Below are positions 3-48,365 of a DNA stretch of 64,000 nt, piece by piece. Origin of the DNA: Oligoflexia bacterium (GTDB lineage: Bacteria > Bdellovibrionota > Bdellovibrionia > JABDDW01). Numbering within the stretch: position 1 is the stretch's first letter; each line of letters opens with the position of its first letter. Position numbers and translations under genes: made by a program. The DNA is taken from assembly GCA_020847095.1 (NCBI GenBank), contig JADLCR010000088.1, forward strand, positions 46,871 to 110,870. The letters run 5' to 3'. The notes under the pieces were generated by a model. It made no database searches. It had not been told where the DNA came from and was given only the letters and a program-made list of their open reading frames with translations.

Positions 3-1253
3 TCAAGGCACGATGGTGAAATTTAGAATTTTAAACGCGATGCGTCTTACCCCTTCTCGTTCGACGATGACTTGACCAGGCGCCATCCCCTTTTTCTTTC
101 GGACAAATTTTCGCGGCGTGACGATGAAGTCGAGTTTTTCACCCGGTAAAAACGGGTGTTTTTTTCGCTGACTCAATTGAGCTACAACGAGACAAGCCTT
201 TTCGATTAAATGTTCTGGCGGTGATGCCTTCTTTGACCCTCGAATAACTCCGTGGGCACCAGGGTAATCACGAAGATGAATCCACAGATCGTGGGGTTGC
301 ACGGCCTTAATCAATTCGTCATTTTGTTGGGCATTGCGACCTACCCAGAGTTCCCACTCCGGATCAAGACTGACTTGAATACCCTTCCATCGTTTTTCAA
401 TCGGGGCCACCGTTTGTTTTTCTAAACTCGCTTCTGTATTTGATGGCAAATCTTGCAATTCTCTTTGAAGCGCCCCAAGCCGCTCCTCGCTCACTCGACG
501 TTTTGTTTTTAATGTATGGATCTCGCCATAAATTTTTTGAAGCTTGGTCCCGAGCCGCCCCCCACGCCCCTTAAGAGCTTCTGCTTCGTCCAACAGATTA
601 TTAATGGATTGCTCGTAGGTTGGATCATCTAAGCTCTTCTGCAAATTTTGAATGGCACGCTCAAGTTTAGCCGCTTTTTTGTTTTCTTTAACGGCCGCGG
701 GCCTTTCGGGCGCGTTTTCTAAGCTCATCACTTCCTGACTCTTACTAAACTCTGACCGAGGCTCAGGCTCAACAAAGGCGACATTGACGAGCTCGCCCCA
801 GAGATTCGTTTTTAAACGAGGTTGGACGACTTGTTTATCGTTGGCCTCGAGTCCGATTTGGCAGCCATGGGGAAACACTTTAAAATAAAGGCGTCGAATG
901 CCTTCGGACGAATCAAAATCTAATCTCAGCAATCGATTAGGCTTTTGTGCAACGGCTATTCCTAAGAATTCAAGTCCGACAAAATGAGCTCTTAAAAAAT
1001 TGATAACCGGGGTGAGAACGACTTTTCGAGGACGACTTGCTTTTGCCGAACCTTCGGCATCCACCCCAAACCAAGGGCGAGACGGCTTTAAACAAAGGAC
1101 GAGCGCGTAAGTTTGACCTGGAGTTCTGAACTCTAAGACAACGGTGTGGGCATCAATACCATAAATCTTTTGAAGTTGGCCGCCCTTAAGTGATTGTGTC
1201 TCTTCAGCCAACGTATAGACATCATCATAATTCAAGACTTTAGACTGGGTCAT
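3..1253 (-). CDS. rqcH: RqcH/FbpA family protein (NFACT-N domain plus DUF814/NFACT-R), partial; C-terminus runs off the window start
   Basis: The N-terminus resembles the NFACT-N start (LQKIYGID...VLEF). The C-terminal block PGAHGVIRG...FIVTPRKFVRKKKGMAPGQV is typical of DUF814. The ORF reaches coordinate 3 with no stop. The ORF track starts at 1310, but the internal Met at 1253 (MTQSK) fits the family N-terminus better. Confidence 0.72.
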   Translation of the reverse strand: MTQSKVLNYDDVYTLAEETQSLKGGQLQKIYGIDAHTVVLEFRTPGQTYALVLCLKPSRPWFGVDAEGSAKASRPRKVVLTPVINFLRAHFVGLEFLGIAVAQKPNRLLRLDFDSSEGIRRLYFKVFPHGCQIGLEANDKQVVQPRLKTNLWGELVNVAFVEPEPRSEFSKSQEVMSLENAPERPAAVKENKKAAKLERAIQNLQKSLDDPTYEQSINNLLDEAEALKGRGGRLGTKLQKIYGEIHTLKTKRRVSEERLGALQRELQDLPSNTEASLEKQTVAPIEKRWKGIQVSLDPEWELWVGRNAQQNDELIKAVQPHDLWIHLRDYPGAHGVIRGSKKASPPEHLIEKACLVVAQLSQRKKHPFLPGEKLDFIVTPRKFVRKKKGMAPGQVIVEREGVRRIAFKILNFTIVP

Positions 1254-1308
1254 GCCACATATTACTTCACGAAATAAAGAATCAATAAGAAATTCCGATC
1301 CAATAGGC

Positions 1309-1593
1309 ATGATGCACCGGAAGTCAGACCCATTAGTGAAGATTTTAGAAAGGTACCTTCTTCAGGTGACCATTGGGGAAAAACTCTCTAATACGATGAT
1401 TGAGGCCATTGTGGCCGAATACTTAGAACAGCTCAATGCGCAAGGGGTGCATATTCCTGGTCCGGTACGGAATGTTTTTATTCAAGACATAAAGGAAGAA
1501 ATCAAAGATCTCGCAACGCAAGCCACTTTGGGTGCCATCTCGACGGAAGATCAATCTGAATCTCAGCCCCGCCAACCGCGAAAAGCAGCATAA
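1309..1593 (+). CDS. hypothetical small protein (uncertain)
   Basis: A 94 to 113 aa ORF lies in the 580-bp gap. Its ATG overlaps the divergent rqcH start at a shared CATG. No recognizable motif. Confidence 0.25.
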   Translation: MMHRKSDPLVKILERYLLQVTIGEKLSNTMIEAIVAEYLEQLNAQGVHIPGPVRNVFIQDIKEEIKDLATQATLGAISTEDQSESQPRQPRKAA

Positions 1594-1801
1594 AAAAAAG
1601 AGGCCGCCTGCATCCACAACCCAAATCAACAAACGGGCAACTCAGCGCAAAAATTCGGATGCTGCGACCTCAACGAGCCCAACGCTCATGTATTCCTTAT
1701 TCAAGATTCGTGCACAATCCATTGCCAAGTGATTAGGAGATGATCGCATTCCGACCGGTCAAGTTCTAAACAGTGAGCCATTTTTGTCGTTCGATATATT
1801 G

Positions 1802-1836
1802 AAAAAAAATCGGGTTCCCTTTTAAAGGAACCCGAT
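1802..1836 (-). terminator. rho-independent terminator for the lipoprotein gene
   Basis: Hairpin atcgggttcc..ggaacccgat. On the minus strand it is followed by a T-run (plus-strand A8 at 1802-1809). Confidence 0.5.
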
Positions 1837-1893
1837 CACAGAGGAGAGAGAGGTCAATTCGCCGTCCTAGCGAAACTTAAAATTCGATTTTAA

Positions 1894-2904
1894 CTATTTC
1901 TTTTGTTCAAGCTTGATATCAATGATCACAGGAGGAAGTTCTTTTCCGCCAGCCGTTGCAGGAATTGTAACCTTGGCTGTTTTCTCTTGGTCATTGCGAT
2001 CAACGCGGAATGTTCCGTATGTGATAGCTTCGTTGGTTTTTGATAAATCAGGCAATCGATAGACTCGCACGCTCTGAACAAGAGAATCAGAAATTTTCTC
2101 TTCTTCACCAGCGAGGTTTTTAGCCTTCGCAGCGCCGCTCAATTTTGAAGCATCGATCTTTAATGTTCTTACAACAAGCCCTGCTTCTTTCTTCAAATCG
2201 TTGAGCGCGAGCATTTCCTCTTCTGCGCCTACGGCAACAGGCTCGCCGTCAAACTTGGCCGTTCCTGAATAGCCGCGAATGACTTCGCGCTTAATCACTC
2301 GATTAATTTCTCGACCAGCCTTATCTTTTTCAATCGTCACTTCAATAACACCGCTGTTGAGGTCAACCATGTTTTCAGGCATAGTTACTTTTCCGGTAAC
2401 AGGAGCGTCTTCTAAACCTTTTTCAACCTGAACGATTTGCGCCTCACCAGGCTTTGAAATTCTCACACGAAATTGCGATGTGGAATTGTCTGCATGTTTT
2501 AATGTCAAAAGGACGGCATTAACGCTTTTTGATTCTGCATCAACAGATTGCGTAGCCGATACTGACGTTACCGGTGAAACTTCTTTTTTTGTATCGCTTC
2601 CTTCAGTTGAAGCTGCAGGAGGCGCTGCTGGATCTGCGGGATCTGCACTAGCGTCCGTACCTGCGGGCGCCGATGTACCACCATTATTATTGGTTGCGCC
2701 GGGAGCCCCTGAAGTACCTGTCGGTGCCGGGACCTGATCTGTTATTGCGGGATTTTGTCCGCCTGTGCCTTGGGTATTTGCGTCACCTGGCGCCTTGGGA
2801 GGAACTTTACCGTCATTGCTTGCTCGTCGCTTTGGAGCGCAACCGGAAGCCATGACCGCTACTAACACAAAACTTAAAACAACGTACATTTTCGATTTCA
2901 TCAT
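1894..2904 (-). CDS. lipoprotein with Pro/Gly/Thr/Ala-rich disordered N-terminal region
   Basis: Lipobox signal MMKSKMYVVLSFVLVAVMASGC. Low-complexity PAPTGTSGAPGAT region, then a structured C-terminal domain. Confidence 0.7.
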   Translation of the reverse strand: MMKSKMYVVLSFVLVAVMASGCAPKRRASNDGKVPPKAPGDANTQGTGGQNPAITDQVPAPTGTSGAPGATNNNGGTSAPAGTDASADPADPAAPPAASTEGSDTKKEVSPVTSVSATQSVDAESKSVNAVLLTLKHADNSTSQFRVRISKPGEAQIVQVEKGLEDAPVTGKVTMPENMVDLNSGVIEVTIEKDKAGREINRVIKREVIRGYSGTAKFDGEPVAVGAEEEMLALNDLKKEAGLVVRTLKIDASKLSGAAKAKNLAGEEEKISDSLVQSVRVYRLPDLSKTNEAITYGTFRVDRNDQEKTAKVTIPATAGGKELPPVIIDIKLEQKK

Positions 2905-3147
2905 ACTCTCCTATGTGAATACGAACCGAATCATGGCCCTTTTGAGCAATCCAAAGGCCACGTCGATTTGCCGTCAAACCCCCGCCATTGCCTATTGAGG
3001 TGAATTTGGCATTTTTTGGCTGGCAAAATTAGGCGATCAGTGACATTGAACGGCACTGGAAGTCTGAAAACTTTGCCTCAAAGTGCATTCATTTGGTCAG
3101 GGGCAGGCTTCATATTTGAATAAATAAAGATTTGAGAAGGTGTAGAG

Positions 3148-4923
3148 ATGGGATCCATATCCAAGTTGATTCTTATTACTTTGCTATTGGTATTAGCCAA
3201 TCCGATGAAAAACCGTCTATTGGCTCAAGAACCCCCTTGCTCAGAAGACCTCAAAATCATGGGTCGTGCCTTTATCCTAAACAAAGATACCGACCTTGTA
3301 TGGCAAGACAACGACCTTGCTCTACTCGCTAATCCTGACGTCATCCAGTACGGAGCCTTGTTGAGGCCTTATACAAACGAGCAAGCGCGCATATATGATG
3401 TGACCGTTTCATCACCAGATAATTGCTTGGCGCTAAAAAGTCTTGAGAGCGCCGTGAGCACGGGCGAGTTTAGCGAACCATTTGAGCTCTCAATAGATTC
3501 TTCTGACCCTAATGATTTAAGCCAGTATTTCAATGGCCTTAACGTAAAGAGAATTGAAAGCCGGTTGCCTGTTGAATCCGTATCAAAGAAACTGATTAAT
3601 ACAAAATCGGGCCCAGTCTATTTGTTCAAATGGAAATTGAAAAAGGAATATCAGCCTCACCTCTCAGAAGAAGTCTCTTACACAATTGATGGTCAAACGG
3701 TCATTGTGGCCTTGAGATCTTCAAAAGATCATATTGAAAAAGCAGGCGATGAAGCTGAGCCGTCTGATGACACTGAAGATGCCATCATTGCCCCTCCTGC
3801 TAAATCAGAGCTCCCCAAATTTCGAATGCCTGTCGATGGATCCCCTTGGATCACTCGATTCTTTGGCCCGTACCTTTGGAGAAGCGGAGGCATCTATAAT
3901 AAGCTTCCGTCGTTGGCACCCGATGTGGTCGATGCGATGTATGCGGCCTCGCCAAGACCAATTCCCGGACACAAGACAACACTCACGACTCTTAAAAAGT
4001 ACTTTCAACGTCACACAGGTATCGACTTTAGCGTTCCAACGGGCACAAAAGTTTTTGCTCCATATAACGGAGTTGTCTATGCCGTGGGACATATGGGCTG
4101 CACAGGCAACACCGTCATTGTTGAGCATCTGCTGCCTGACTCATCGAGAATGTATTCAGTTTACTATCACCTTAAAGGCTACAATCAGATGGTTCAGGAG
4201 CCCAATGGCACTCCCAAATTGAAAACTCCTGGCGCCAAATACAAAAAGGGAACAAAGCTCGTCAACCTTAAGGTTGGACATAAAATCGAACAGGGAGAGG
4301 TTCTTGCCTTTTCTGGATTTACAGGAATCCCAGTGAGCTTTTCAAAGGGACGAAAATCCGGTTGCGTGCAAGGTCCGCATTTGCATTTCGAGCTCAAAAA
4401 ACCTTTAACTCAAGATGATATCGCCGAAATAGAAAAATTCTCCAATCCAAATCAAAGAAAGAGATTCTCTCACTTTGTAGGTCAAACAGCTTTTGTTAAT
4501 CCGTCCGAATTTATTCCTTATGTGGATGATGCCTGCTACCGCCGACGGCGCGCCGAACTTCGAAATGCAGTTCGACTTGAGAAGGCCATGGGTAAAAAGT
4601 ATTTGCCCGTGATGACCGCCGGCCCTTGCAGTCAAAGAACGGAAATCAAAATTCGCGAAGAAATAGCCAGTGAGCTTAAATCTGAAGGGATCAGGCTTTT
4701 GCCGACTGATGAATCAACATTGCCAGCTTTGTATCAAGTCAAATCAAGTGATCAGATTGAACTCATATTCAGTGAGTTTGTTAAACCTACACAAACTCGT
4801 TCGGCAAGTGCAGGTCGTCCCCAGAACTCCACAGGTGTAACGACTTCCCTTCGGCCAATCAAAAGATCGAAATCAATGTCTAAGGCACCGCAAAAGTCGC
4901 AAACTTCTGGAGGTGGATCATGA
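3148..4923 (+). CDS. secreted M23 family metallopeptidase (LytM-like)
   Basis: N-terminal signal peptide. M23 motifs HTGIDFSVPTGTKVFAPYNG, YYHLKGY and GPHLHFELKK. Confidence 0.8.
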   Translation: MGSISKLILITLLLVLANPMKNRLLAQEPPCSEDLKIMGRAFILNKDTDLVWQDNDLALLANPDVIQYGALLRPYTNEQARIYDVTVSSPDNCLALKSLESAVSTGEFSEPFELSIDSSDPNDLSQYFNGLNVKRIESRLPVESVSKKLINTKSGPVYLFKWKLKKEYQPHLSEEVSYTIDGQTVIVALRSSKDHIEKAGDEAEPSDDTEDAIIAPPAKSELPKFRMPVDGSPWITRFFGPYLWRSGGIYNKLPSLAPDVVDAMYAASPRPIPGHKTTLTTLKKYFQRHTGIDFSVPTGTKVFAPYNGVVYAVGHMGCTGNTVIVEHLLPDSSRMYSVYYHLKGYNQMVQEPNGTPKLKTPGAKYKKGTKLVNLKVGHKIEQGEVLAFSGFTGIPVSFSKGRKSGCVQGPHLHFELKKPLTQDDIAEIEKFSNPNQRKRFSHFVGQTAFVNPSEFIPYVDDACYRRRRAELRNAVRLEKAMGKKYLPVMTAGPCSQRTEIKIREEIASELKSEGIRLLPTDESTLPALYQVKSSDQIELIFSEFVKPTQTRSASAGRPQNSTGVTTSLRPIKRSKSMSKAPQKSQTSGGGS

Positions 4924-5465
4924 AGTCTGTCATCGCTGTGGGACTATTCTTTATTTTTTCGATTGCATCCATAGTTGAAGCTCAGCCGCAGCTTGCAGCG
5001 CCTCAAACAACAGCACAAATTGATAACCTAGGCCTCACGCGGCCGTCGGGACGATTCAAAATGACAATCGATCCCTTTGCACTTTTATTTGGCGGGGTGA
5101 GCGTTGGAGTGGATTCTGACTTCGGGCCGTTGTGGTCTGGATCGGCAAATTACACTCAAGTAGGCGCAGGCGGTGGAAATGCACTTATGGCGTACGCCCT
5201 CAACTCGTTTAGGGTTTCTCTTCGCAGACACTTTCGCGGAAAATCCACAGGTTCTAGTTTTATGATGGGCCCTGAACTGGGTTACGCCTCGGCTCAAGGC
5301 GATGTGCTCTGGGTTAAAGGAAATAAAACCGGCCTCATGGCGGGAGCATATGCAGGCTTTCAATTCGCACTGACAGACTTTTACATGCAGCTTGGCGCCA
5401 GCGGAGGTGTTCTTCAGTCCTCTTGGTACGCCATCCCTGATCTTCGAGTCGGATGGCTATTCTAA
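4920..5465 (+). CDS. hypothetical outer-membrane beta-barrel protein
   Basis: Signal peptide, Gly/Ala/Ser-rich alternating pattern and a C-terminal ...RVGWLF aromatic end. Its start overlaps the M23 stop (ATGA). Confidence 0.5.
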   Translation: MKSVIAVGLFFIFSIASIVEAQPQLAAPQTTAQIDNLGLTRPSGRFKMTIDPFALLFGGVSVGVDSDFGPLWSGSANYTQVGAGGGNALMAYALNSFRVSLRRHFRGKSTGSSFMMGPELGYASAQGDVLWVKGNKTGLMAGAYAGFQFALTDFYMQLGASGGVLQSSWYAIPDLRVGWLF

Positions 5466-5483
5466 TATTTGAGCTTTTTTAAT

Positions 5484-6041
5484 CTATTTAACCCAGCGAA
5501 CTTTACAGGTAGCCTCTTTGATCGTCGCCACTTCTTTCGACCATCGTTCGCCAATGGCCATAGCTAACGCAGCCGGTTTAATTTGGAGATCTTGCAAGCA
5601 TGAAGTCTTCACAGGCGTTCCTTCATTTGAGATGTTTATTGCAAAATGTATTAAACAGGAAACCGGCGAAGAAGTGGCAATGCTAATGCTGGCCTTGCCA
5701 TCAAGCCAAAAAAGATCATCACCATCCCGTTGAATTTTTAAATCAGACCTTAATCTTTCAATTTCTTCTTTTACGATACAAGCCAATAACCGTTGTCTTG
5801 TGACGGCGAATTCAAGGTTTCGGCCAAATTCTTCGACAATAAAATGGAGCATGTGACTGCCGCGAATTTCCGATTTGGCCAACAGATCTTCGCCATCCAC
5901 CATGTGATCAAAGCTCACCGAACATGGTCCCTCGAAAGCGATCATAGAATCGCCTAGAACGCCATGATTAAGGTAGGCATACAAAGAAACAAGCTGAGTT
6001 CCATCATAAGCGAGTTTGTTATCCAGAAACTTAAACTTCAT
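5484..6041 (-). CDS. conserved hypothetical protein translationally coupled to queC
   Basis: Likely start MKFKFLD overlaps the queC stop by 4 nt. No QueD (CxxxHGH) or QueE (CxxxCxxC) motifs. Confidence 0.55.
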   Translation of the reverse strand: MKFKFLDNKLAYDGTQLVSLYAYLNHGVLGDSMIAFEGPCSVSFDHMVDGEDLLAKSEIRGSHMLHFIVEEFGRNLEFAVTRQRLLACIVKEEIERLRSDLKIQRDGDDLFWLDGKASISIATSSPVSCLIHFAINISNEGTPVKTSCLQDLQIKPAALAMAIGERWSKEVATIKEATCKVRWVK

Positions 6042-6688
6042 GGCCGAAACTCCTTTAATCCTCGTGCTGATCGCTGGCAACTTTCACAGCGCCCGCACGG
6101 TTGAGAGCCGCTTTGATAGCAACTCCAAACATGAGCAAGATCCACACCCAATTCAAATGCTCTGCCCACCATTTGGGTTTTATTGAGCTGGGTCGTAAAT
6201 GAAATGGCTTTAACTTGGCTCATTGTACTTAACTTGAAGGCAAGAGTTGTTTGATCCAAAAATGCTTGAGTGTTGTCTGGAAACGTAGCCGCTTCTTCAA
6301 TATTAAATCCAGGAATCACCGCTTGGGCTCCCAGGCTTTCAGCAAAGCTCGCCGCAATATTGAGAAAGACGCCGTTTCGGTTTGGAACCCAGACAGCCTT
6401 CGCCGATTCATCGGCCTCTCGTTTATCATCTAGATTTTTGAGCTCAGGCATGGCCGATTCATTGTTAACTAGTGCGGTTTTGGTAATGGAGGCCAACCAA
6501 GGAATTTCGATGACTCGATGGGGGGCTTTAAGTTTTTCGCAAAAAAAACGGGCCGCTTGAATTTCATTCTTAGCCGCCCGTTGCCCGTAATCGAATGTTA
6601 AGGCGAGAGTGACCTCCCCTTTTTGTTTAGCCTCGTAGAGGTTTACAACAGAATCCAGTCCACCACTGAGCAAAACGACAAACTTCAT
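6038..6688 (-). CDS. queC: 7-cyano-7-deazaguanine synthase
   Basis: PP-loop VVLLSGGLDS and the C-terminal zinc site CGRCESCQRSARG. Length 216 aa. Confidence 0.9.
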   Translation of the reverse strand: MKFVVLLSGGLDSVVNLYEAKQKGEVTLALTFDYGQRAAKNEIQAARFFCEKLKAPHRVIEIPWLASITKTALVNNESAMPELKNLDDKREADESAKAVWVPNRNGVFLNIAASFAESLGAQAVIPGFNIEEAATFPDNTQAFLDQTTLAFKLSTMSQVKAISFTTQLNKTQMVGRAFELGVDLAHVWSCYQSGSQPCGRCESCQRSARGLKEFRP

Positions 6689-40981: not shown

Positions 40982-40992
40982 TCAAACGAAAC

Positions 40993-41020
40993 ACAACGGC
41001 CCCCGAGCAGGGGCCGTTGT
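40993..41020. terminator. bidirectional terminator hairpin between convergent genes
   Basis: acaacggcccc-gagca-ggggccgttgt. Confidence 0.45.
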
Positions 41021-41042
41021 GAAATACAATTCAACTTTTTAA

Positions 41043-42338
41043 TTAATGAGTACGGTCAGCTAAAAATTTGGCCTTCTTAACCGCTTCGCCAACATTCAAG
41101 AAACCGCCGCTTGATACTTTGTCGGTAAGAAAAGTCTTCTTTGTGCTCGTTTCTAGTAAAATAGCTTTAACTTCGTTCCATTTTAGATTGGGGTTAGCTG
41201 CTAACATGAGCGCAGCCGCACCGGCGACGTGCGGTGACGCCATCGAGGTTCCACTTAAATACTGAAACCACCCCTTACTCACAGTGTTTCTTAATGGGGT
41301 ATCTAAAGAATAAATGGTATCGCCAGGGGCCACAATATCGACGCTCACTTTGCCGTAGTTAGAAAAGCCCGCGAGCTCCCCTTTATCATTGTAGCTTGCT
41401 GCAACTGAAACAATGTTATCAAGATCATAAGCCGCCGGGTACATAGGAGTCTTGTCGGCGTTGCTACTATCATTGCCAGCAGCCGCTACAAATAGCATTC
41501 CTTTGTCCATGGCGTACTTGATCGCATCATAAAGGGCTGGGTTTGCTTCGTCACTTCCCCAACTGCAATTAATGACTCTTGCACCATTATCCGCAGCGTA
41601 CACGATTGTTTTAATTGCGGCTTCGTCAGTTCCAGAACCATCGGCACCTAGAAATTTAACTGTCATAATGCTTGTGTACCAATTGACACCAGATATTCCG
41701 GACTTGTTCCCACCAACCGCTCCAATGGTGCCCGCTACGTGGGTGCCATGATAATGATTTTCATTGGGCGACGGTGAATTGGTCTCAAAGTTATAACCAT
41801 TCACGTCATCAATGTACCCATTGCCATCGTCATCAATTTTGTTTTTAGATTTATCTTTTCCGTTGGCGTCTTTTCCGAATTCTCCCGGGTTGACCCAAAT
41901 ATTATCGCCAATATCAAAATGCTTCATGAAGGTTCCGGTGTCGGATACGGCCACAACGATCTTTCGATCGCCTTGAGTGATTTTCCACGCCTCAAAAGTG
42001 TTTGAGGCCTTTATCCCCCAAGTGCCTCCGGCCTCTGATTCCATTTGGGAGAGCGTAGGAACGGAGTCGTTCGAAACCAAACGAACTCGTCCATTTCTTG
42101 CGATATACAGAATTTCTCCGGCAGATTTTTCGCCGATTCGGCTCACCGGAAGGCCTTGCCCCTTAATCACCGCCATATTTAGCTGAGGAATAAATGTTTT
42201 GACCGACTGAAATCCATCGAGCTCTTTTAGAGCTTTAATTCCTTTGGCCGTATCTCCACGAAACCGGACAATATATTCCGCGGCACTTCCAACATTGCTG
42301 ATGAGAATTAAAATTAACCCCACAAGACCTGCTCGCAT
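41043..42338 (-). CDS. secreted subtilisin-like serine protease (peptidase S8)
   Basis: VAVSDTGT, HGTHVAGT and GTSMASPHVAG. Signal peptide from the internal Met MRAGLVGLILIL. The ORF track extends to 42407. Confidence 0.88.
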   Translation of the reverse strand: MRAGLVGLILILISNVGSAAEYIVRFRGDTAKGIKALKELDGFQSVKTFIPQLNMAVIKGQGLPVSRIGEKSAGEILYIARNGRVRLVSNDSVPTLSQMESEAGGTWGIKASNTFEAWKITQGDRKIVVAVSDTGTFMKHFDIGDNIWVNPGEFGKDANGKDKSKNKIDDDGNGYIDDVNGYNFETNSPSPNENHYHGTHVAGTIGAVGGNKSGISGVNWYTSIMTVKFLGADGSGTDEAAIKTIVYAADNGARVINCSWGSDEANPALYDAIKYAMDKGMLFVAAAGNDSSNADKTPMYPAAYDLDNIVSVAASYNDKGELAGFSNYGKVSVDIVAPGDTIYSLDTPLRNTVSKGWFQYLSGTSMASPHVAGAAALMLAANPNLKWNEVKAILLETSTKKTFLTDKVSSGGFLNVGEAVKKAKFLADRTH

Positions 42339-42446
42339 GCCCCCTCCTTGGCTCGTTGTTAGAAACTCGACTACGGATAAAAGCCTAGCATGAAAGGGGC
42401 AAAACAATAATGAAGCGGAAAGAAAACTGGACGAACGGCGGGTTGG

Positions 42447-43166
42447 TTAAGGTCGGTCAGTAACGATCGCGGCTTCACCATCTTCATTCAGAAGCCTCTG
42501 GAGATAACGATAGGGAAGCCATGACTGCGGATAGTTAGTTCCCCAACTATTGATGATCTTAACGGCTTGTCTCTCGTCGCTTGCGCCGATGATACAAACG
42601 CAATGTCCTCGATTTCGCTCGTGCCGACCGAGTCCATTTTTTGCGATCCAATAATCTCCTGATATGAGCTCGGGCGAATCCATGTTGTTATACCATTTAA
42701 CGCCAATTGTGACGGGCGTTCCTTTTGAAATGGCGGTGCGAATCTGATCAACATTCTCAGCCCACCTGTTTTCAAGGATCCCTTCCTTTTTATTGGGTCG
42801 GTAGCGCCGTTGGCCCACCACTCGCACATGTCCAAGGCCTCTGAGAATGTCCATGGCCGCCATAACGGTTGTGCCATTTTGATCACCAGGGTTTGTGTCA
42901 GGCCAAATATCCACCTCTTTTGCCATATTCCAAAGCCAACGGGCATCATAATAACGCCGATTCAGAATAGACATCATCCAAGATGAGCCAAAGCCAACGC
43001 AGGCGCCTTCAGAACCTTGATCATATTTCGAAATATAATTTTTGTTAACTTTCAGAACTTTTTCAACGCGGGTCGCGGTCCTTGGAACCAAAGCTGAATA
43101 AGCCCAAAGTCGCTGGTGATCCGTATTATAAGGCGGCTTCCAACCCAGAAGTTTCTTCTTTCCCAT
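42447..43166 (-). CDS. papain-like cysteine peptidase (C1-like), no signal peptide or prodomain
   Basis: Gln six residues before the Cys in QGSEGACVGFGSSW. HCVCIIG and NSWG with papain-like spacing: Cys to His about 135 residues, His to Asn 17. N-terminus MGKKKLLGWKPPY. Confidence 0.6.
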   Translation of the reverse strand: MGKKKLLGWKPPYNTDHQRLWAYSALVPRTATRVEKVLKVNKNYISKYDQGSEGACVGFGSSWMMSILNRRYYDARWLWNMAKEVDIWPDTNPGDQNGTTVMAAMDILRGLGHVRVVGQRRYRPNKKEGILENRWAENVDQIRTAISKGTPVTIGVKWYNNMDSPELISGDYWIAKNGLGRHERNRGHCVCIIGASDERQAVKIINSWGTNYPQSWLPYRYLQRLLNEDGEAAIVTDRP

Positions 43167-43171
43167 CTGCG

Positions 43172-43978
43172 CTAGCCCACTTTCCTAATAGAAATCCGAT
43201 TCTTTAACATGGGGTTGAGAAATCTCTCTTTATCTTGAAGTACTTTGATAGCCTCAGGCTCCACTATCATTCCTGTGGCTTCACTCAGTTTGTCGCTGAG
43301 CGCTTTTGGATCTTTATCTACAAATTCCTCAACATCTTTAATTCCAGCTTTATCAAATAGTTTGCTGATCTCGCGTGGAAGCACTTTCGAAGCCACAAGT
43401 CCGGACTTGCCAATTTTAGTTTTCCAATCCACCTGGCCGTTAACCTTTTTTAACGCCTCTAAACCACCGGCTTTATTTGTAACCCGTTGAAAATCATCGA
43501 CTGAGAAAATTCGATTCTTTTTAAGGGTCTCTATTGTTTCCGCAGGTAAATCCAGTGACTCGATAGGTTCGTGCTTTTCAAGCATCAAAGGCACTTGTGC
43601 ACCAACAACAGGTCTCACTTTCAATCTGAATTGGCCAACACCAGGGCCCGCCTTTTCGCTATCAGCAACGCTAGCAACAATTTGCCCCAAATTGTCTACA
43701 CGTGCCTTGATTGGCAGAACAATGTCGATTTCATCCACCAAAAAAGCGGCGGTTCCGTTTTGATATTTTGTCAGTTCATTTTGCACGCTTGAGAGAGATA
43801 GGGCAATGCTTTCTCCTAGTTCGTGCAACACAACTTCTCCAGTCGTGATGTTTGGACCGCCGGAGTTACCAGAATTTGGGGGAGTGGTAGGGTCCCCGAA
43901 TCGTATCAATGACTGGTTCTTTGCTCGACGTTTGATTGCTTTCTTAGCTATTTTCTTCCGTGATTTCATCTGTCCCAC
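43172..43978 (-). CDS. hypothetical protein with poly-basic N-terminus and RFGDP motif
   Basis: MGQMKSRKKIAKKAIKRRAKNQSLIRFGDP. No signal peptide. Shares its N-terminal architecture with the 45521..46693 product. Confidence 0.5.
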   Translation of the reverse strand: MGQMKSRKKIAKKAIKRRAKNQSLIRFGDPTTPPNSGNSGGPNITTGEVVLHELGESIALSLSSVQNELTKYQNGTAAFLVDEIDIVLPIKARVDNLGQIVASVADSEKAGPGVGQFRLKVRPVVGAQVPLMLEKHEPIESLDLPAETIETLKKNRIFSVDDFQRVTNKAGGLEALKKVNGQVDWKTKIGKSGLVASKVLPREISKLFDKAGIKDVEEFVDKDPKALSDKLSEATGMIVEPEAIKVLQDKERFLNPMLKNRISIRKVG

Positions 43979-44279
43979 TCTCTGTCATCGTCTCTACGGG
44001 CCTTTCCAACCGCCTAACCCCGATTCCAATTCCGGCCGTCATGCGCTCGGATGGTATAAGATCAAGCGTCGATGATACTCCCGCTGAATTTTTTGCAACA
44101 GTAATTGCTGAGATATTGAATCCTAGTTGAATTCGATTCCATACGAAATGACGAGTGGGTGTTCCCACTTGATCTGAAATGAGTTTTGATCTCTCGGCAG
44201 ATTGATCTAACTGGTACTGTGAATCAACGATATGAGCTGCGATTGCGCCCAAAACATTTTGTGCCTTTCGCGACATCAC
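43944..44279 (-). CDS. hypothetical small protein (uncertain)
   Basis: 111-aa ORF. Its start overlaps the upstream gene stop (ATGA) and its end overlaps the next gene start by 35 nt. Confidence 0.35.
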   Translation of the reverse strand: MMSRKAQNVLGAIAAHIVDSQYQLDQSAERSKLISDQVGTPTRHFVWNRIQLGFNISAITVAKNSAGVSSTLDLIPSERMTAGIGIGVRRLERPVETMTESGTDEITEENS

Positions 44280-45502
44280 GCAACCTCGCGATCGGTTATG
44301 GGCTGAGGAATCTCAAGGTGATAGGCCGGATCCTCTTTTGGCTTCAAAAACTTACTGATTCGCTTTTCTTCGGCTACTACTCGCTCAAATGCCACACGAT
44401 CTTTTAGAGATTTCGGATCAATATCAATAACATTGAATTTTTTTGGATCTGCAAGATGTAAAGAAACAGTGCTAGGTCCGATTTCATTTATCTTTCGTTC
44501 CATTTGCTGAATGACTTCTGCCCGCTGTAGATCTCGCGCAATTCCCTTTTCGTAAACTTCTATGATTTTTCTCCCGGGTCCCTTATAGAGTCCTTTCATG
44601 TGTGCCACGCCATGCTTTGCGCAATTGTCATACATGATACGTGCCTGGTCTGCAGGCTTTCTTGCCGTGCTCGTGATGAATGCTCCATGCTCATTACAAG
44701 CTACTAGAATATCTTCCAGAACTCCGAGCGAATAGGTTGAAACCAACTCTTTCTTTGCATTTGGGCCAAACTGAATTTCAATTTTCGCACGTGATTTATT
44801 CAAAGCATTTCTGGTTGACGGCGGAATAGCATTGCCTTCGCGAATCTCTGGGCCGCTAGATTCGATGGGAGCATTGAGTAAATCCATGATGGTTACAGAG
44901 GGGGCAACTGAATGATGTTTGAGCACGTAAACGGCGTCATTAAAAAACTTAATAAACCGATCGCAATGCTCACCAGTGCCTATCGGGTACTGTTTCATTT
45001 TCCATCTGTTTCGAGCCCCGTTGTTGCGCTTAACGCCTCCTGCGTTGTAGGCAGCTGCAACGCGTGGAGGATCAAATTCAGTAACCCTTGACTGAAACGC
45101 GATATAAGCCGTCCCAGCTTTAATCGAATTTCTCGGCTCAAAAAGCCATTCACGACTCACGCTTTGTCTCAGGGTATCGCTCGCCGTTGAAATCAGAGTC
45201 TGCATCAGTCCTGCGCTGATCCGGCTCGGCGTTGCCGAGTCCGACCGAAAACCTGGCTCTTCCCGAACAGCCCTGGGGTTTCCGCTTGATTCCGTACAAA
45301 TGGTGGCGATGATAAGTTCACAGGGAACACGATACTGAGAAGCTATATCGTTGATTATTTCACAATAGGAGTCCCAAACACGTCCAACGGTTCGTGGAGC
45401 ACCTCGAGTGCGCTCCACGCCCGACCCTTCCACCTCGATACCGTCTCTCGTTAAACGCCATCGTGTGCCATTATTAAAATTGTGAAATCGTCCAAGCGAC
45501 AT
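44276..45502 (-). CDS. lytic transglycosylase (SLT domain) fused to an uncharacterized C-terminal domain
   Basis: Family-1 LT motifs TESSGNP, AGLMQ and AYNAG in the N-terminal half. About 200 aa of C-terminal sequence of unknown type. No signal peptide. Confidence 0.72.
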   Translation of the reverse strand: MSLGRFHNFNNGTRWRLTRDGIEVEGSGVERTRGAPRTVGRVWDSYCEIINDIASQYRVPCELIIATICTESSGNPRAVREEPGFRSDSATPSRISAGLMQTLISTASDTLRQSVSREWLFEPRNSIKAGTAYIAFQSRVTEFDPPRVAAAYNAGGVKRNNGARNRWKMKQYPIGTGEHCDRFIKFFNDAVYVLKHHSVAPSVTIMDLLNAPIESSGPEIREGNAIPPSTRNALNKSRAKIEIQFGPNAKKELVSTYSLGVLEDILVACNEHGAFITSTARKPADQARIMYDNCAKHGVAHMKGLYKGPGRKIIEVYEKGIARDLQRAEVIQQMERKINEIGPSTVSLHLADPKKFNVIDIDPKSLKDRVAFERVVAEEKRISKFLKPKEDPAYHLEIPQPITDREVA

Positions 45503-45520: not shown

Positions 45521-46693
45521 TTAAATGAGTACCGCAATTTTCTTCGCCAAAACGCCCCATGTCACGGTCACGTTTACCAATGTTGGCTTGTCCTTTTTTT
45601 CTTCGTATGAATATCCAGATCGGGTAATTCTAAAAATGATAGAACCATCATCATTGGCTGGCTGAGAATCGGCAACATAGGATTCTGTTGTGCCTTGCAA
45701 CTTCTTATAAGTAATTCTCATAAACGGATCATCCACATTGACTGTGATTTTTTGCCCTTTATTTCCAACATAGCCAACTTCGTTTCCACCGGTGCCGCCT
45801 TCGGTTCGAGGTGCCTTTTTCAAAACAGCCTCAAATTGATGGTAGCGCCCAATGATCACTGGTTCAGCTGGAACCGTAGGATCATTTGAGACTCCAGGTT
45901 TGGTGACGTCGCCTGATCCTGTCAAATCCACGGCCATCGTTGCGCCCGATTGGATAAGAAAGGGCTTTGGAGCTTCAATTTCTTTTCGCGGCTCAAGAGT
46001 AGCTTCCATATGCATATTGCCAACGGAAGATGTGACAGTGGTGCTCGAATCAGTTGAGCTGCTGTAATTGCTATTATTGTACCCAAGGCTTCCGCTGATG
46101 CTACCGCCGGTCATTCCATAACTGCCATTCACACCAACTTTGAAAGACTCAGATCGGCCTTGGATTTTAAATCCAGTATCAGCATCAAAAGATGCCACTT
46201 TCATATCGGCCTGAAGATGAACTCGGCTCCATTGATAAGAAACTGGTGGTAAAAAGCTAATGACGGGAATCTGACTCTTGATCACTGTTGGAGTGTCGTA
46301 AGTCCCGTCGTCTTTAACTTTTTGCTCTATAATTGTTGGAACTTCTATGTTTGTTTTCGAGAGCTCTTTTGCAGTTTCTACCATGTTTTTATCAAGTGCT
46401 TCTTGAGCATCGGCCACGGCATGACCAATTTTTCCGACGAATTCTCCAAATGCAGGAGTCACATTTGATAACCCAGCAGCCGTGCGCTTAGCCGCATCGG
46501 CGGCCCTAGGGTCACCAAATCTAAGTGCTCCTTTGTTTTTGGCACGAGCTTTTGCTTGTCGCTTCAAGTCTTCTACGATCGCCAAAGCTTCTTTTGTGTC
46601 CTTTGGGAGAGCTTTTAAAAGCTTCGCCGTTTCCTTTTTCACAAATGATGCACCGACAAAATTTTTCTTAAGCTTTCTTGCTGGTTTTCCCAT
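45521..46693 (-). CDS. hypothetical protein with poly-basic N-terminus, RFGDP motif and Gly/Ser-rich beta-rich body
   Basis: MGKPARKLKKNF...KGALRFGDP. Ser/Thr/Gly-rich central segment. No signal peptide. First gene of the five-gene module. Confidence 0.55.
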   Translation of the reverse strand: MGKPARKLKKNFVGASFVKKETAKLLKALPKDTKEALAIVEDLKRQAKARAKNKGALRFGDPRAADAAKRTAAGLSNVTPAFGEFVGKIGHAVADAQEALDKNMVETAKELSKTNIEVPTIIEQKVKDDGTYDTPTVIKSQIPVISFLPPVSYQWSRVHLQADMKVASFDADTGFKIQGRSESFKVGVNGSYGMTGGSISGSLGYNNSNYSSSTDSSTTVTSSVGNMHMEATLEPRKEIEAPKPFLIQSGATMAVDLTGSGDVTKPGVSNDPTVPAEPVIIGRYHQFEAVLKKAPRTEGGTGGNEVGYVGNKGQKITVNVDDPFMRITYKKLQGTTESYVADSQPANDDGSIIFRITRSGYSYEEKKDKPTLVNVTVTWGVLAKKIAVLI

Positions 46694-47735: not shown

Positions 47736-48107
47736 TTACTTTTTTGCTTTTGGCTGCCAAGAACCACATGAGCCTGCGGCCGCAACTAGCCCCGCGGTAA
47801 GCATTTGGCACTTACCCCATCCTGCATTTGATGCGGTGTAGAGTGCGCAATTATCGCAAATCATGTTTTTCTTTTTGAGGTCCTTAAATTGGGGATATTT
47901 TTTTAAGTCCATGGCCTTGGCGTCTTTTTTATAACCAAGGGCAGACGCAACCGCATCCGACTCAGACACTTCCTTTTCACCAGCTGGCAATGCCACTTCA
48001 CCTTTGGCCAATGCCCAAGTGCTTCCAATTGCCTGCACCACTGGGATCGCCGCAGTCACGATCAGGGCAGCTTTCAAGACTTCTCTCCTAGATGTTTCAT
48101 CTTTCAT
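47736..48107 (-). CDS. high-potential iron-sulfur protein (HiPIP) with Tat signal
   Basis: SRREVLKAAL twin-arginine signal. HiPIP Cys pattern CDNCALY...C...C. Confidence 0.8.
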   Translation of the reverse strand: MKDETSRREVLKAALIVTAAIPVVQAIGSTWALAKGEVALPAGEKEVSESDAVASALGYKKDAKAMDLKKYPQFKDLKKKNMICDNCALYTASNAGWGKCQMLTAGLVAAAGSCGSWQPKAKK

Positions 48108-48128: not shown

Positions 48129-48365
48129 TTATGTTGATTTGACAATCTCGAATCCAAAAAACTTTGCGATTTTCTTAGATCTTTTCTTCAGCTTTTTAGC
48201 CTGCTTTTTTAATTTCTTGCGCCGCTTTTTTACGGAAACTCTTGGTTCGACCAAAAATTCACCAGCAATTCCTGAGTCCCCTCTAAAAAATTGAACTAGC
48301 GGAATCGCCGCAAAGAAAAGCAAAATGGATTTGAGCAATTCCCGTCTTGAGCTTTCACTTTTCAA
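48129..48365 (-). pseudogene. truncated HiPIP-like paralog: Tat-type signal plus poly-Lys tail, HiPIP domain missing
   Basis: MKSESSRRELLKSILLFFAAIPLVQ parallels the HiPIP N-terminus, with DNA-level similarity (GCGGCGATYCC...). It continues into KKRRKKLKKQAKKLKKRSKK. Lacks the HiPIP Cys pattern (no Cys). Confidence 0.35.

Follow-up and report, generated by a model that had tools for sequence, protein, structure and literature searches.

A leaderless SLT protein fused to an uncurated M15-like domain, a predicted bifunctional peptidoglycan hydrolase, and its gene cassette in at least eight phyla

What might a lytic transglycosylase do that carries no export signal and ends in some 200 residues that no database recognizes? 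The question is raised by a gene on the minus strand of a 64,000-nucleotide stretch of DNA (hereafter the window; contig JADLCR010000088.1 of assembly GCA_020847095.1, positions 46,871 to 110,870) from a metagenome-assembled genome of an Oligoflexia bacterium. A preliminary description of the window had proposed that this gene encodes an SLT domain followed by a second enzymatic or targeting domain of a delivered muramidase. Our analysis, which combines sequence comparison with a structural model, indicates with a probability of roughly 0.75 that the product is a leaderless bifunctional peptidoglycan hydrolase with two catalytic domains. The gene belongs to a conserved cassette with three core proteins, named here g390, g111 and g268, and is an enzymatic part of it that can be lacking.

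Domain architecture of the fusion protein

The open reading frame (ORF) has exactly the limits first assigned to it (Table 1). Pfam model PF01464 (SLT; family-1 lytic transglycosylases, GH23) aligns with residues 49-168 (E=1.1e-16; 60.9 bits, cutoff 21.3), and the motifs named in the preliminary description were all located: the catalytic pair E71-S72 inside a TICTES stretch, GLMQ at residues 98-101 and AYNAG at residues 151-155. SLT domains are lytic transglycosylases, which act non-hydrolytically, so that the term muramidase was imprecise. The N-terminus, MSLGRFHNFNNGTRWRLTRDG, is polar, and the highest mean over any 19-residue Kyte-Doolittle window is 1.0; together these argue that the protein has neither a signal peptide, whose lack had been noticed before, nor a membrane anchor.

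In an alignment of 11 orthologues, E71 and most of the SLT module are invariant, with the Glu-Ser pair, GLMQ and AYNAG invariant or nearly so. Conservation extends beyond the Pfam domain on both sides. Upstream, H7, W15, R16, L17, G21, E23, G28, E30, R31, G34, P36 and W43 are invariant in the 11 orthologues, and this stretch (residues 1-48), also found in 876 SLT-family relatives, possibly serves as a partner-docking element. Downstream, invariant columns run from N165 to H197 and recur in standalone relatives of 213-225 amino acids. Residues 1-209 as a whole define a leaderless and highly conserved SLT subfamily (876 matches, with 55-63% identity among the best matches listed) that takes in both residues 1-48 and the C-terminal NRWK..QYPIGTGEHCDRF extension. 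Most members either consist of the module by itself, at about 215 amino acids, or carry an N-terminal LysM or PG_binding_1 domain. Seven sequences were read, among them four complete standalone proteins, and no signal peptide was seen in any. One member, P0079 (locus L097; 63% identical), is encoded in a Mu-like prophage, with Gam/GemA on one side and gp27, terminase and portal genes on the other, the interval in which Mu-like phages carry their lysis genes. The leaderless character of the subfamily and the position of this member suggest that the glycan-cleaving half of the fusion is of the endolysin type.

Residues 200-408 matched nothing in Pfam, NCBIfam, PHROGs, PADLOC or the PDB, either as a single sequence or as a profile, in keeping with their first description as unrecognized; the only trace in curated models was DUF5715 (E=0.016, for 3 of 37 family members). 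Querying residues 198-408 against 5.8 billion proteins yielded 36 relatives, mostly standalone proteins of 164-170 amino acids, with two WXG100 fusions and one LysM fusion. Their alignment sets the borders of the domain at residues 241-401, and what had been described as a C-terminal region of roughly 200 residues is thus resolved into one compact domain of about 160 residues and a low-complexity linker of about 35 (206-240). The linker differs widely between orthologues in length and composition, with Pro/Ser/Gly-rich insertions of as much as about 80 amino acids.

Within the domain alignments S347, H349, D360, D391, H395 and E397 are invariant, and a TSTxR..DQAR motif, containing R281 and Q286, is nearly so. 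An AlphaFold2 model built from the family alignment reached a predicted local distance difference test score (pLDDT) of 93.8. When it was compared with the PDB using Foldseek, matches were weak overall and VanXYc was the sole plausible one (probability 0.8). A fold search of BFVD returned one true viral member of the family (template modelling score 0.78); among its other matches were several from phages that bear the name 'Peptidase M15B' (probability 0.97). The model and the alignments support a LAS/M15 zinc-peptidase-like fold with an invariant putative metal and catalytic site, and hence the second enzymatic domain that had been suggested. The preliminary description had also considered that this region might prove to be a common domain, such as an M15 peptidase, of ordinary periplasmic transglycosylases with signal peptides. 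It does appear to be M15-like, but it is no common curated domain and is not found in ordinary periplasmic transglycosylases that have signal peptides.

The two halves would then act on different bonds. The SLT half is predicted to cut the bond between N-acetylmuramic acid (MurNAc) and N-acetylglucosamine by means of E71, leaving 1,6-anhydroMurNAc ends. The C-terminal half, held on a flexible linker, would be a very divergent zinc-dependent peptidase of LAS/M15 type, in which H349, D360 and H395 may bind the metal, D391 or E397 may act as general base, and R281 and Q286 may be the substrate-carboxylate and oxyanion residues. It would cleave the stem peptide or a cross-link, the candidate bonds being L-Ala-D-Glu, the terminal D-Ala and the cross-link between D-Ala and meso-diaminopimelate. 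Cutting glycan and peptide together would open the sacculus locally.

The M15-like family and its genomic contexts

To define the family to which the C-terminal domain belongs, we used an exhaustive HMMER scan of 1.84 billion representatives of 50%-identity clusters. The family comprises 1,731 clusters at E<=1e-3, of which 649 remain at the stricter limit of E<=1e-30. Its best matches range from 156 to 2472 amino acids, with the domain mostly at the extreme C-terminus, and in 53 diverse multidomain relatives the Ser, His, Asp, Asp, His and Glu residues listed above are again invariant. The domains found with it are to a large part wall-active or wall-binding, namely PG_binding_1 (8 of the 53), PG_binding_3, SH3_3, SLT, Phage_lysozyme, GH46, LysM, Amidase_2, Amidase_3, NlpC/P60 and genuine VanY/M15_4. 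Others, WXG100 and eCIS_core, are trafficking domains of polymorphic toxins. Four of the 53 relatives carry eCIS_core and one an nSTAND1 NTPase, fusions which suggest that the domain is also a cargo of contractile injection systems and a part of NTPase-based conflict systems.

Genomic contexts point in the same direction. At one locus (L005) the gene next to the family member encodes a PF11860 muramidase. At another (L008) a standalone copy follows a VgrG gene and is itself followed by a 163-amino-acid ORF with a signal peptide, an arrangement that marks, as far as can be read from the genes, an effector that acts in the periplasm and is paired with an immunity protein. The signal-peptide ORFs of about 165 amino acids in L001 (6534-7034) and L008 (2641-3132) overlap the stop codons of the standalone M15-like genes and show homology between themselves (31% over 64 amino acids, pairwise E=2e-6), which makes them candidates for a new periplasmic immunity family. 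In the unannotated gut phage MT835567.1 (L091) a standalone M15-like gene is convergent with a Phage_holin_4_1 gene (3950-4492 and 4729-5223), and is probably the endolysin of that phage. Taken together, fusion partners and contexts argue that the substrate of the domain is peptidoglycan.

A different setting was found in the Thermoanaerobaculia (L006, L014, L017-L024, L041, L065 and L068), where a standalone 165-amino-acid M15-like gene is vertically syntenic with the lipid-A and core genes LpxK, KdtA and a lipid-A acyltransferase, with no obvious immunity gene. This setting may point to a housekeeping function of the gene within the class.

A cassette in at least eight phyla

We scanned one genome per GTDB species, which gave 176 relatives of the C-terminal domain, and retrieved 80 loci. 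The full SLT and M15-like fusion is present at 12 of them, two apparently frameshifted; the ten intact fusions are 46-53% identical over their full length by BLAST (50-55% in the alignment of 11 orthologues). These loci come from Chloroflexota, Bacteroidota, Acidobacteriota, Spirochaetota, Actinomycetota, Myxococcota/'Deltaproteobacteria' and Gemmatimonadota, which with the Bdellovibrionota of the window brings the fusion and its cassette to at least eight phyla. Gene order is nearly constant: a g390 homologue, the fusion, g111 and a g268 homologue, joined in five lineages by a papain-like peptidase, g239. A g390 homologue lies directly upstream of the SLT gene at 12 of the genome loci, and a metagenome scan seeded with g390 added 24 further loci, with an SLT gene after g390 in about 21 and the M15-like domain carried by the SLT protein in 11. 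The cassette was found at loci L011, L012, L015, L031, L034, L036, L052, L062, L064, L070, L073, L092, L096 and L106-L129. Neighbours were clustered on naive ORFs, among which antisense ORFs pollute the high-GC loci, and the clusters were used for clear syntenic families only.

The preliminary description had asked whether homologues always carry the fusion. They do not: the SLT protein occurs without the M15-like domain in L120, as well as in L092 and in L096 of Streptomyces (the latter two found through SLT relatives), and the M15-like domain often stands alone.

The protease varies. It is papain-like in the window and at four other loci (L012, L062, L070 and L073), whose syntenic orthologues are 53-57% identical to g239. 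In L036 a caspase (Peptidase_C14, E=1e-21; 5412-6275) lies within the cassette, and in L092 the stretch at 497-3094, next to the cassette, encodes a CHAT protease, a sigma-70 factor and an S8 peptidase. Different protease clans appear to substitute for g239.

Table 1. Features of the fusion gene and of its neighbourhood in the window.
Feature	Position	Strand	Basis or remark
g390, first cassette gene, 390 amino acids	45521..46693	minus	Syntenic homologues
Whole ORF, SLT and M15-like fusion, 408 amino acids	44276..45502	minus	ORF list and translation
Residues 1-48, conserved N-terminal extension of SLT subfamily	45359..45502	minus	FH..VRWRL..GVEIEGSGVERT.G.P.TV.RVW
Residues 49-168, SLT catalytic domain	44999..45358	minus	Pfam PF01464
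E71 codon	45290-45292	minus
Residues 169-205, conserved C-terminal extension of SLT module	44888..44998	minus	NRWK.KQYPIGTGEHCDRF..FFNDAV.VL..H
Residues 206-240, variable interdomain linker	44783..44887	minus
Residues 241-401, predicted LAS/M15-like zinc-peptidase domain, uncurated	44300..44782	minus
H349, putative metal ligand	44456-44458	minus
D360, putative metal ligand	44423-44425	minus
H395, putative metal ligand	44318-44320	minus
R281, Q286, S347, D391, E397, putative catalytic or substrate residues
g111, about 110 amino acids	43944..44279	minus	Junction sequence and syntenic homologues
g268	43172..43978	minus	Homologues kept in synteny at 10 or more genome loci and at many metagenome loci
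g239, leaderless papain-like cysteine peptidase, accessory cassette gene	42447..43166	minus	phrog_16701 'peptidase', E=3e-21
S8 subtilase with signal peptide	41043..42407	minus	Pfam Peptidase_S8, E=2e-61
Strong terminator-like hairpin	40992-41021		S8 is the last gene before it

Features of the g390 product are an N-terminus that is basic and disordered, an AQxxLD motif within a long helix, a beta region rich in Ser and Gly, the invariant motif MEATLEPR and, at the C-terminus, an Ig-like domain. Pfam gave only weak matches for its family, to DUF2589 (the window protein) and Big_1 (four homologues), and exact-sequence look-ups returned no existing record for either g390 or the fusion protein. 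The start of g111 overlaps the stop codon of the fusion in the window (TGATG), and the g111 and g390 families have an N-terminal helix-plus-strand domain in common (hhalign probability 82%, E=1e-5). The g268 protein combines an N-terminal helix-strand element (ELGES..VQ.EL.RY) with C-terminal helix-hairpin-helix/DUF4332-like repeats (weak DUF4332 and HhH matches); its comparison by hhalign with g390 and with g111 was not significant. The S8 subtilase gene is probably co-transcribed with the cassette; it is not a conserved member, since S8 genes occur near family members in L005, L050, L086, L092 and L110 only, and its partial NCBIfam match to a type VII secretion system (T7SS) mycosin (E=5e-43) falls below the cutoff.

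PADLOC recognized none of the five conserved cassette proteins, S8 alone matching generic subtilase models, and no gasdermin or other known pore-former was detectable in the cassette with Pfam. In the literature on DUF2589 and on M15-type effectors of type VI secretion systems (T6SS), we found no description of the domain or of the cassette.

The pentapeptide RFGDP occurs just twice in all six frames of the window, at 46508-46522 in g390 and 43889-43903 in g268 (both minus strand). Both copies lie in basic N-terminal regions (KARAKNKGALRFGDP in g390, KRRAKNQSLIRFGDP in g268) with a common RAKNxxxxRFGDP pro-region, and homologues from other loci have a loose R.GD.P only. The element could be a common pro-peptide or protease recognition site.

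Around the operon, Pfam searches of the ORFs scanned for about 10 kb on either side revealed no T6SS, T7SS, type IV secretion system or extracellular contractile injection system (eCIS) genes, no trafficking domain, no immunity gene and no phage genes. The identifiable flanking genes are housekeeping genes, with 3 of the 10 scanned ORFs lacking a Pfam match. Downstream of the fusion, g111 has no signal peptide, and BLAST searches with it reached neither L001 nor L008, where the immunity-like ORFs are. The idea of a delivered enzyme was a reasonable one, given that in other settings the family supplies modules of T6SS-, T7SS- or eCIS-type effectors, but the surroundings of this gene do not bear it out and the SLT relatives include one at a Mu-like prophage lysis position. 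Horizontal transfer was not apparent from base composition, the GC content of the operon (0.44-0.49) being that of its surroundings, and a prophage lysis module was rejected, g390 being absent from INPHARED and IMG/VR. Elsewhere in the window, two adjacent ORFs (47736-48107 and 48129-48365, minus strand) have near-identical leaders resembling those of the twin-arginine pathway (SRREVLKAALIV... and SRRELLKSILLF...); the first encodes a high-potential iron-sulfur protein, and the second, in which the similarity gives way to a lysine-rich tail, is possibly a duplicate that has decayed.

Wall access, alternative explanations and known systems

A leaderless hydrolase would have to reach the wall through another factor, as a phage endolysin relies on a holin. 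Since the operon offers no holin-like membrane protein, access is plausibly provided by the partners, the likeliest helpers being g390, g111 and g268, possibly under the control of a protease.

Several observations weigh against this account of the enzyme and its partners. Pfam models VanY, M15_3 and M15_4, as well as the NCBIfam M15 models, miss the window protein and its 37 relatives, and hhalign gave no significant result when the family profile was set against the T5 endolysin or against a genuine M15_4 domain (L071). As profile methods do not join the family to M15, membership is argued from fold and motifs rather than from sequence statistics. H349, D360, H395, D391 and E397 follow the M15 order but their spacings differ, and the metal site is a predicted one. 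The role of the partners in wall access is suggested by synteny; none of them has a membrane segment, and the AlphaFold2 model of g390 was poor (pLDDT 51, from 7 sequences) and was not used for fold searches. Furthermore, the cassettes of L114, L125 and L128 lack any SLT gene or wall enzyme, which makes the enzyme an accessory part of the cassette and not its core. L125 (6947-9286) lies on an 842-kb low-GC contig from a fermentation metagenome, next to a PAN-like AAA ATPase gene, and its host may be archaeal; if so, the wall enzyme would be present only where murein exists.

A wider reading, which we put forward tentatively and think rather unlikely, takes the five or six genes of the cassette as a protease-controlled envelope-breaching or suicide module with g390, g111 and g268, taken in this reading to have a helix-plus-strand domain in common, as its core. 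The papain-like, C14, CHAT or S8 protease, depending on lineage, would activate the core, which would breach the cytoplasmic membrane; the breach would release the leaderless fusion enzyme and the wall would be dissolved. Such a module might serve in abortive infection, in regulated lysis or to let out the contents of the cell. Cassettes without a wall enzyme, one of them perhaps archaeal, would fit an enzyme needed only where there is murein.

It is less probable that the fusion is a secreted antibacterial effector, injected by a contractile or type VII-like system into competitors or into the prey of the Oligoflexia bacterium. The host belongs to a predatory lineage, the domain family includes WXG100 and eCIS_core fusions and the copy that follows VgrG, and T6SS effectors of Acinetobacter baumannii are already known that join a lytic transglycosylase to a second domain: Tse4, which also has LysM and an M23 endopeptidase domain (bioRxiv 10.1101/2021.03.04.433973), and Tae17, which has an amidase domain (PMC11796386). 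The fusion protein itself, however, has no trafficking domain, no injection system was found in the ORFs scanned within about 10 kb on either side, the operon contains no immunity gene with a signal peptide, and monoderm (Planotetraspora, Streptomyces) as well as diderm phyla carry this cassette although they have no such injection system in common.

Still more doubtful is that the C-terminal domain does not cleave the wall and is a VanX/VanXY-like D,D-dipeptidase or pentapeptidase of the cytoplasm, with substrates such as D-Ala-D-Ala or UDP-MurNAc-pentapeptide among the soluble or lipid-linked precursors. All forms examined lack signal peptides, the Thermoanaerobaculia copies are vertically syntenic with LpxK and KdtA and have no immunity gene, and one relative is fused to nSTAND1, a cytoplasmic conflict-system scaffold. 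On the other hand, the domain is fused to LysM, PG_binding_1, SH3 and glycan cutters that act solely on the assembled wall, one copy adjoins a phage holin, and the signal peptides of the cognate downstream ORFs at T6SS-type loci locate the target in the periplasm. Least credible is a dead LAS-fold module that merely binds peptidoglycan and targets the transglycosylase: the extra domain in relatives of the SLT module is usually a pure binder (LysM or PG_binding_1), but here every one of the M15 catalytic and metal residues is kept without change in about 50 diverse clusters and in eight phyla, and the domain is often found by itself or, in WXG100 and eCIS_core proteins, as the sole candidate for the toxic module.

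Lytic transglycosylases combined with peptide-cleaving domains also occur in multidomain phage lysins, and the M15/LAS fold is well known. What is new is a large uncurated family detectable only by structure, its fusion to SLT and, above all, the cassette. The family spans T6SS-, T7SS- and eCIS-type effectors, phage lysis modules and multidomain autolysins. As no curated database recognizes it, effectors and lysins that carry it are annotated as 'hypothetical'; the biochemical characterization of one member would allow thousands of proteins to be annotated and would supply a new pair of wall-targeting toxin and immunity protein. The cassette is compact and horizontally mobile, with three core proteins, usually a wall hydrolase and often a protease.

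Among the known systems closest to the predicted hydrolase is the M15/LAS group, with the T5 L-Ala-D-Glu peptidase, Listeria phage Ply500, Serratia ChiX, VanY/VanXY, LdcB and MepA. Motifs of the T5 enzyme, whose sequence was verified as identical to 2mxz/8p3a, were compared by eye: FGKNS, R42..Q46, S64xH66, D73 and D130xxH133xE135. The window domain shows the same order, an N-terminal FGxN, an R..Q helix (R281..Q286), SxH (S347xH349), Asp (D360) and D..HxE on the last strand (D391xxxH395xE397), and the family shares with M15 a setting of phage lysis and wall hydrolysis. It differs in about 60 helical residues inserted between the R..Q helix and SxH (AlphaFold2 secondary structure), in spacings of 11 rather than 7 from His to Asp and 4 rather than 3 from Asp to His relative to T5, and in the lack of detectable sequence or profile similarity, which leaves it outside every Pfam, NCBIfam and PHROG model.

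With Tse4 and Tae17 the fusion has in common that a glycan-cleaving transglycosylase and a peptide-cleaving domain are on one polypeptide. Those effectors, however, are delivered by VgrG, have immunity partners and use M23 or amidase domains, whereas the fusion has no T6SS context and no immunity gene, and joins an SLT module of Mu-like endolysin type to an M15-like domain. Its N-terminal 205 residues, 55-63% identical to the best matches listed in a large leaderless family, resemble the SLT endolysins of Mu-like phages; in contrast to these, the window contains no phage genes, g390 is missing from the phage databases, and a second catalytic domain has been added. A phage endolysin is encoded in a phage or prophage beside a holin; of the relatives of the two halves, L097 lies in a Mu-like prophage and L091 next to a holin, and the window gene has no such setting.

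Finally, holin-endolysin lysis and gasdermin-protease defence would be parallels to the proposed suicide module. Bacterial gasdermins with caspase-like or subtilase proteases form a protease-plus-executioner cell-death operon (bioRxiv 10.1101/2021.06.07.447441). No gasdermin or known pore-former was detectable in the cassette, which has no PADLOC match either, and the likeness would be one of architecture alone: a small operon of leaderless proteins, interchangeable proteases (papain-like, C14, CHAT and S8) and horizontal spread across phyla.

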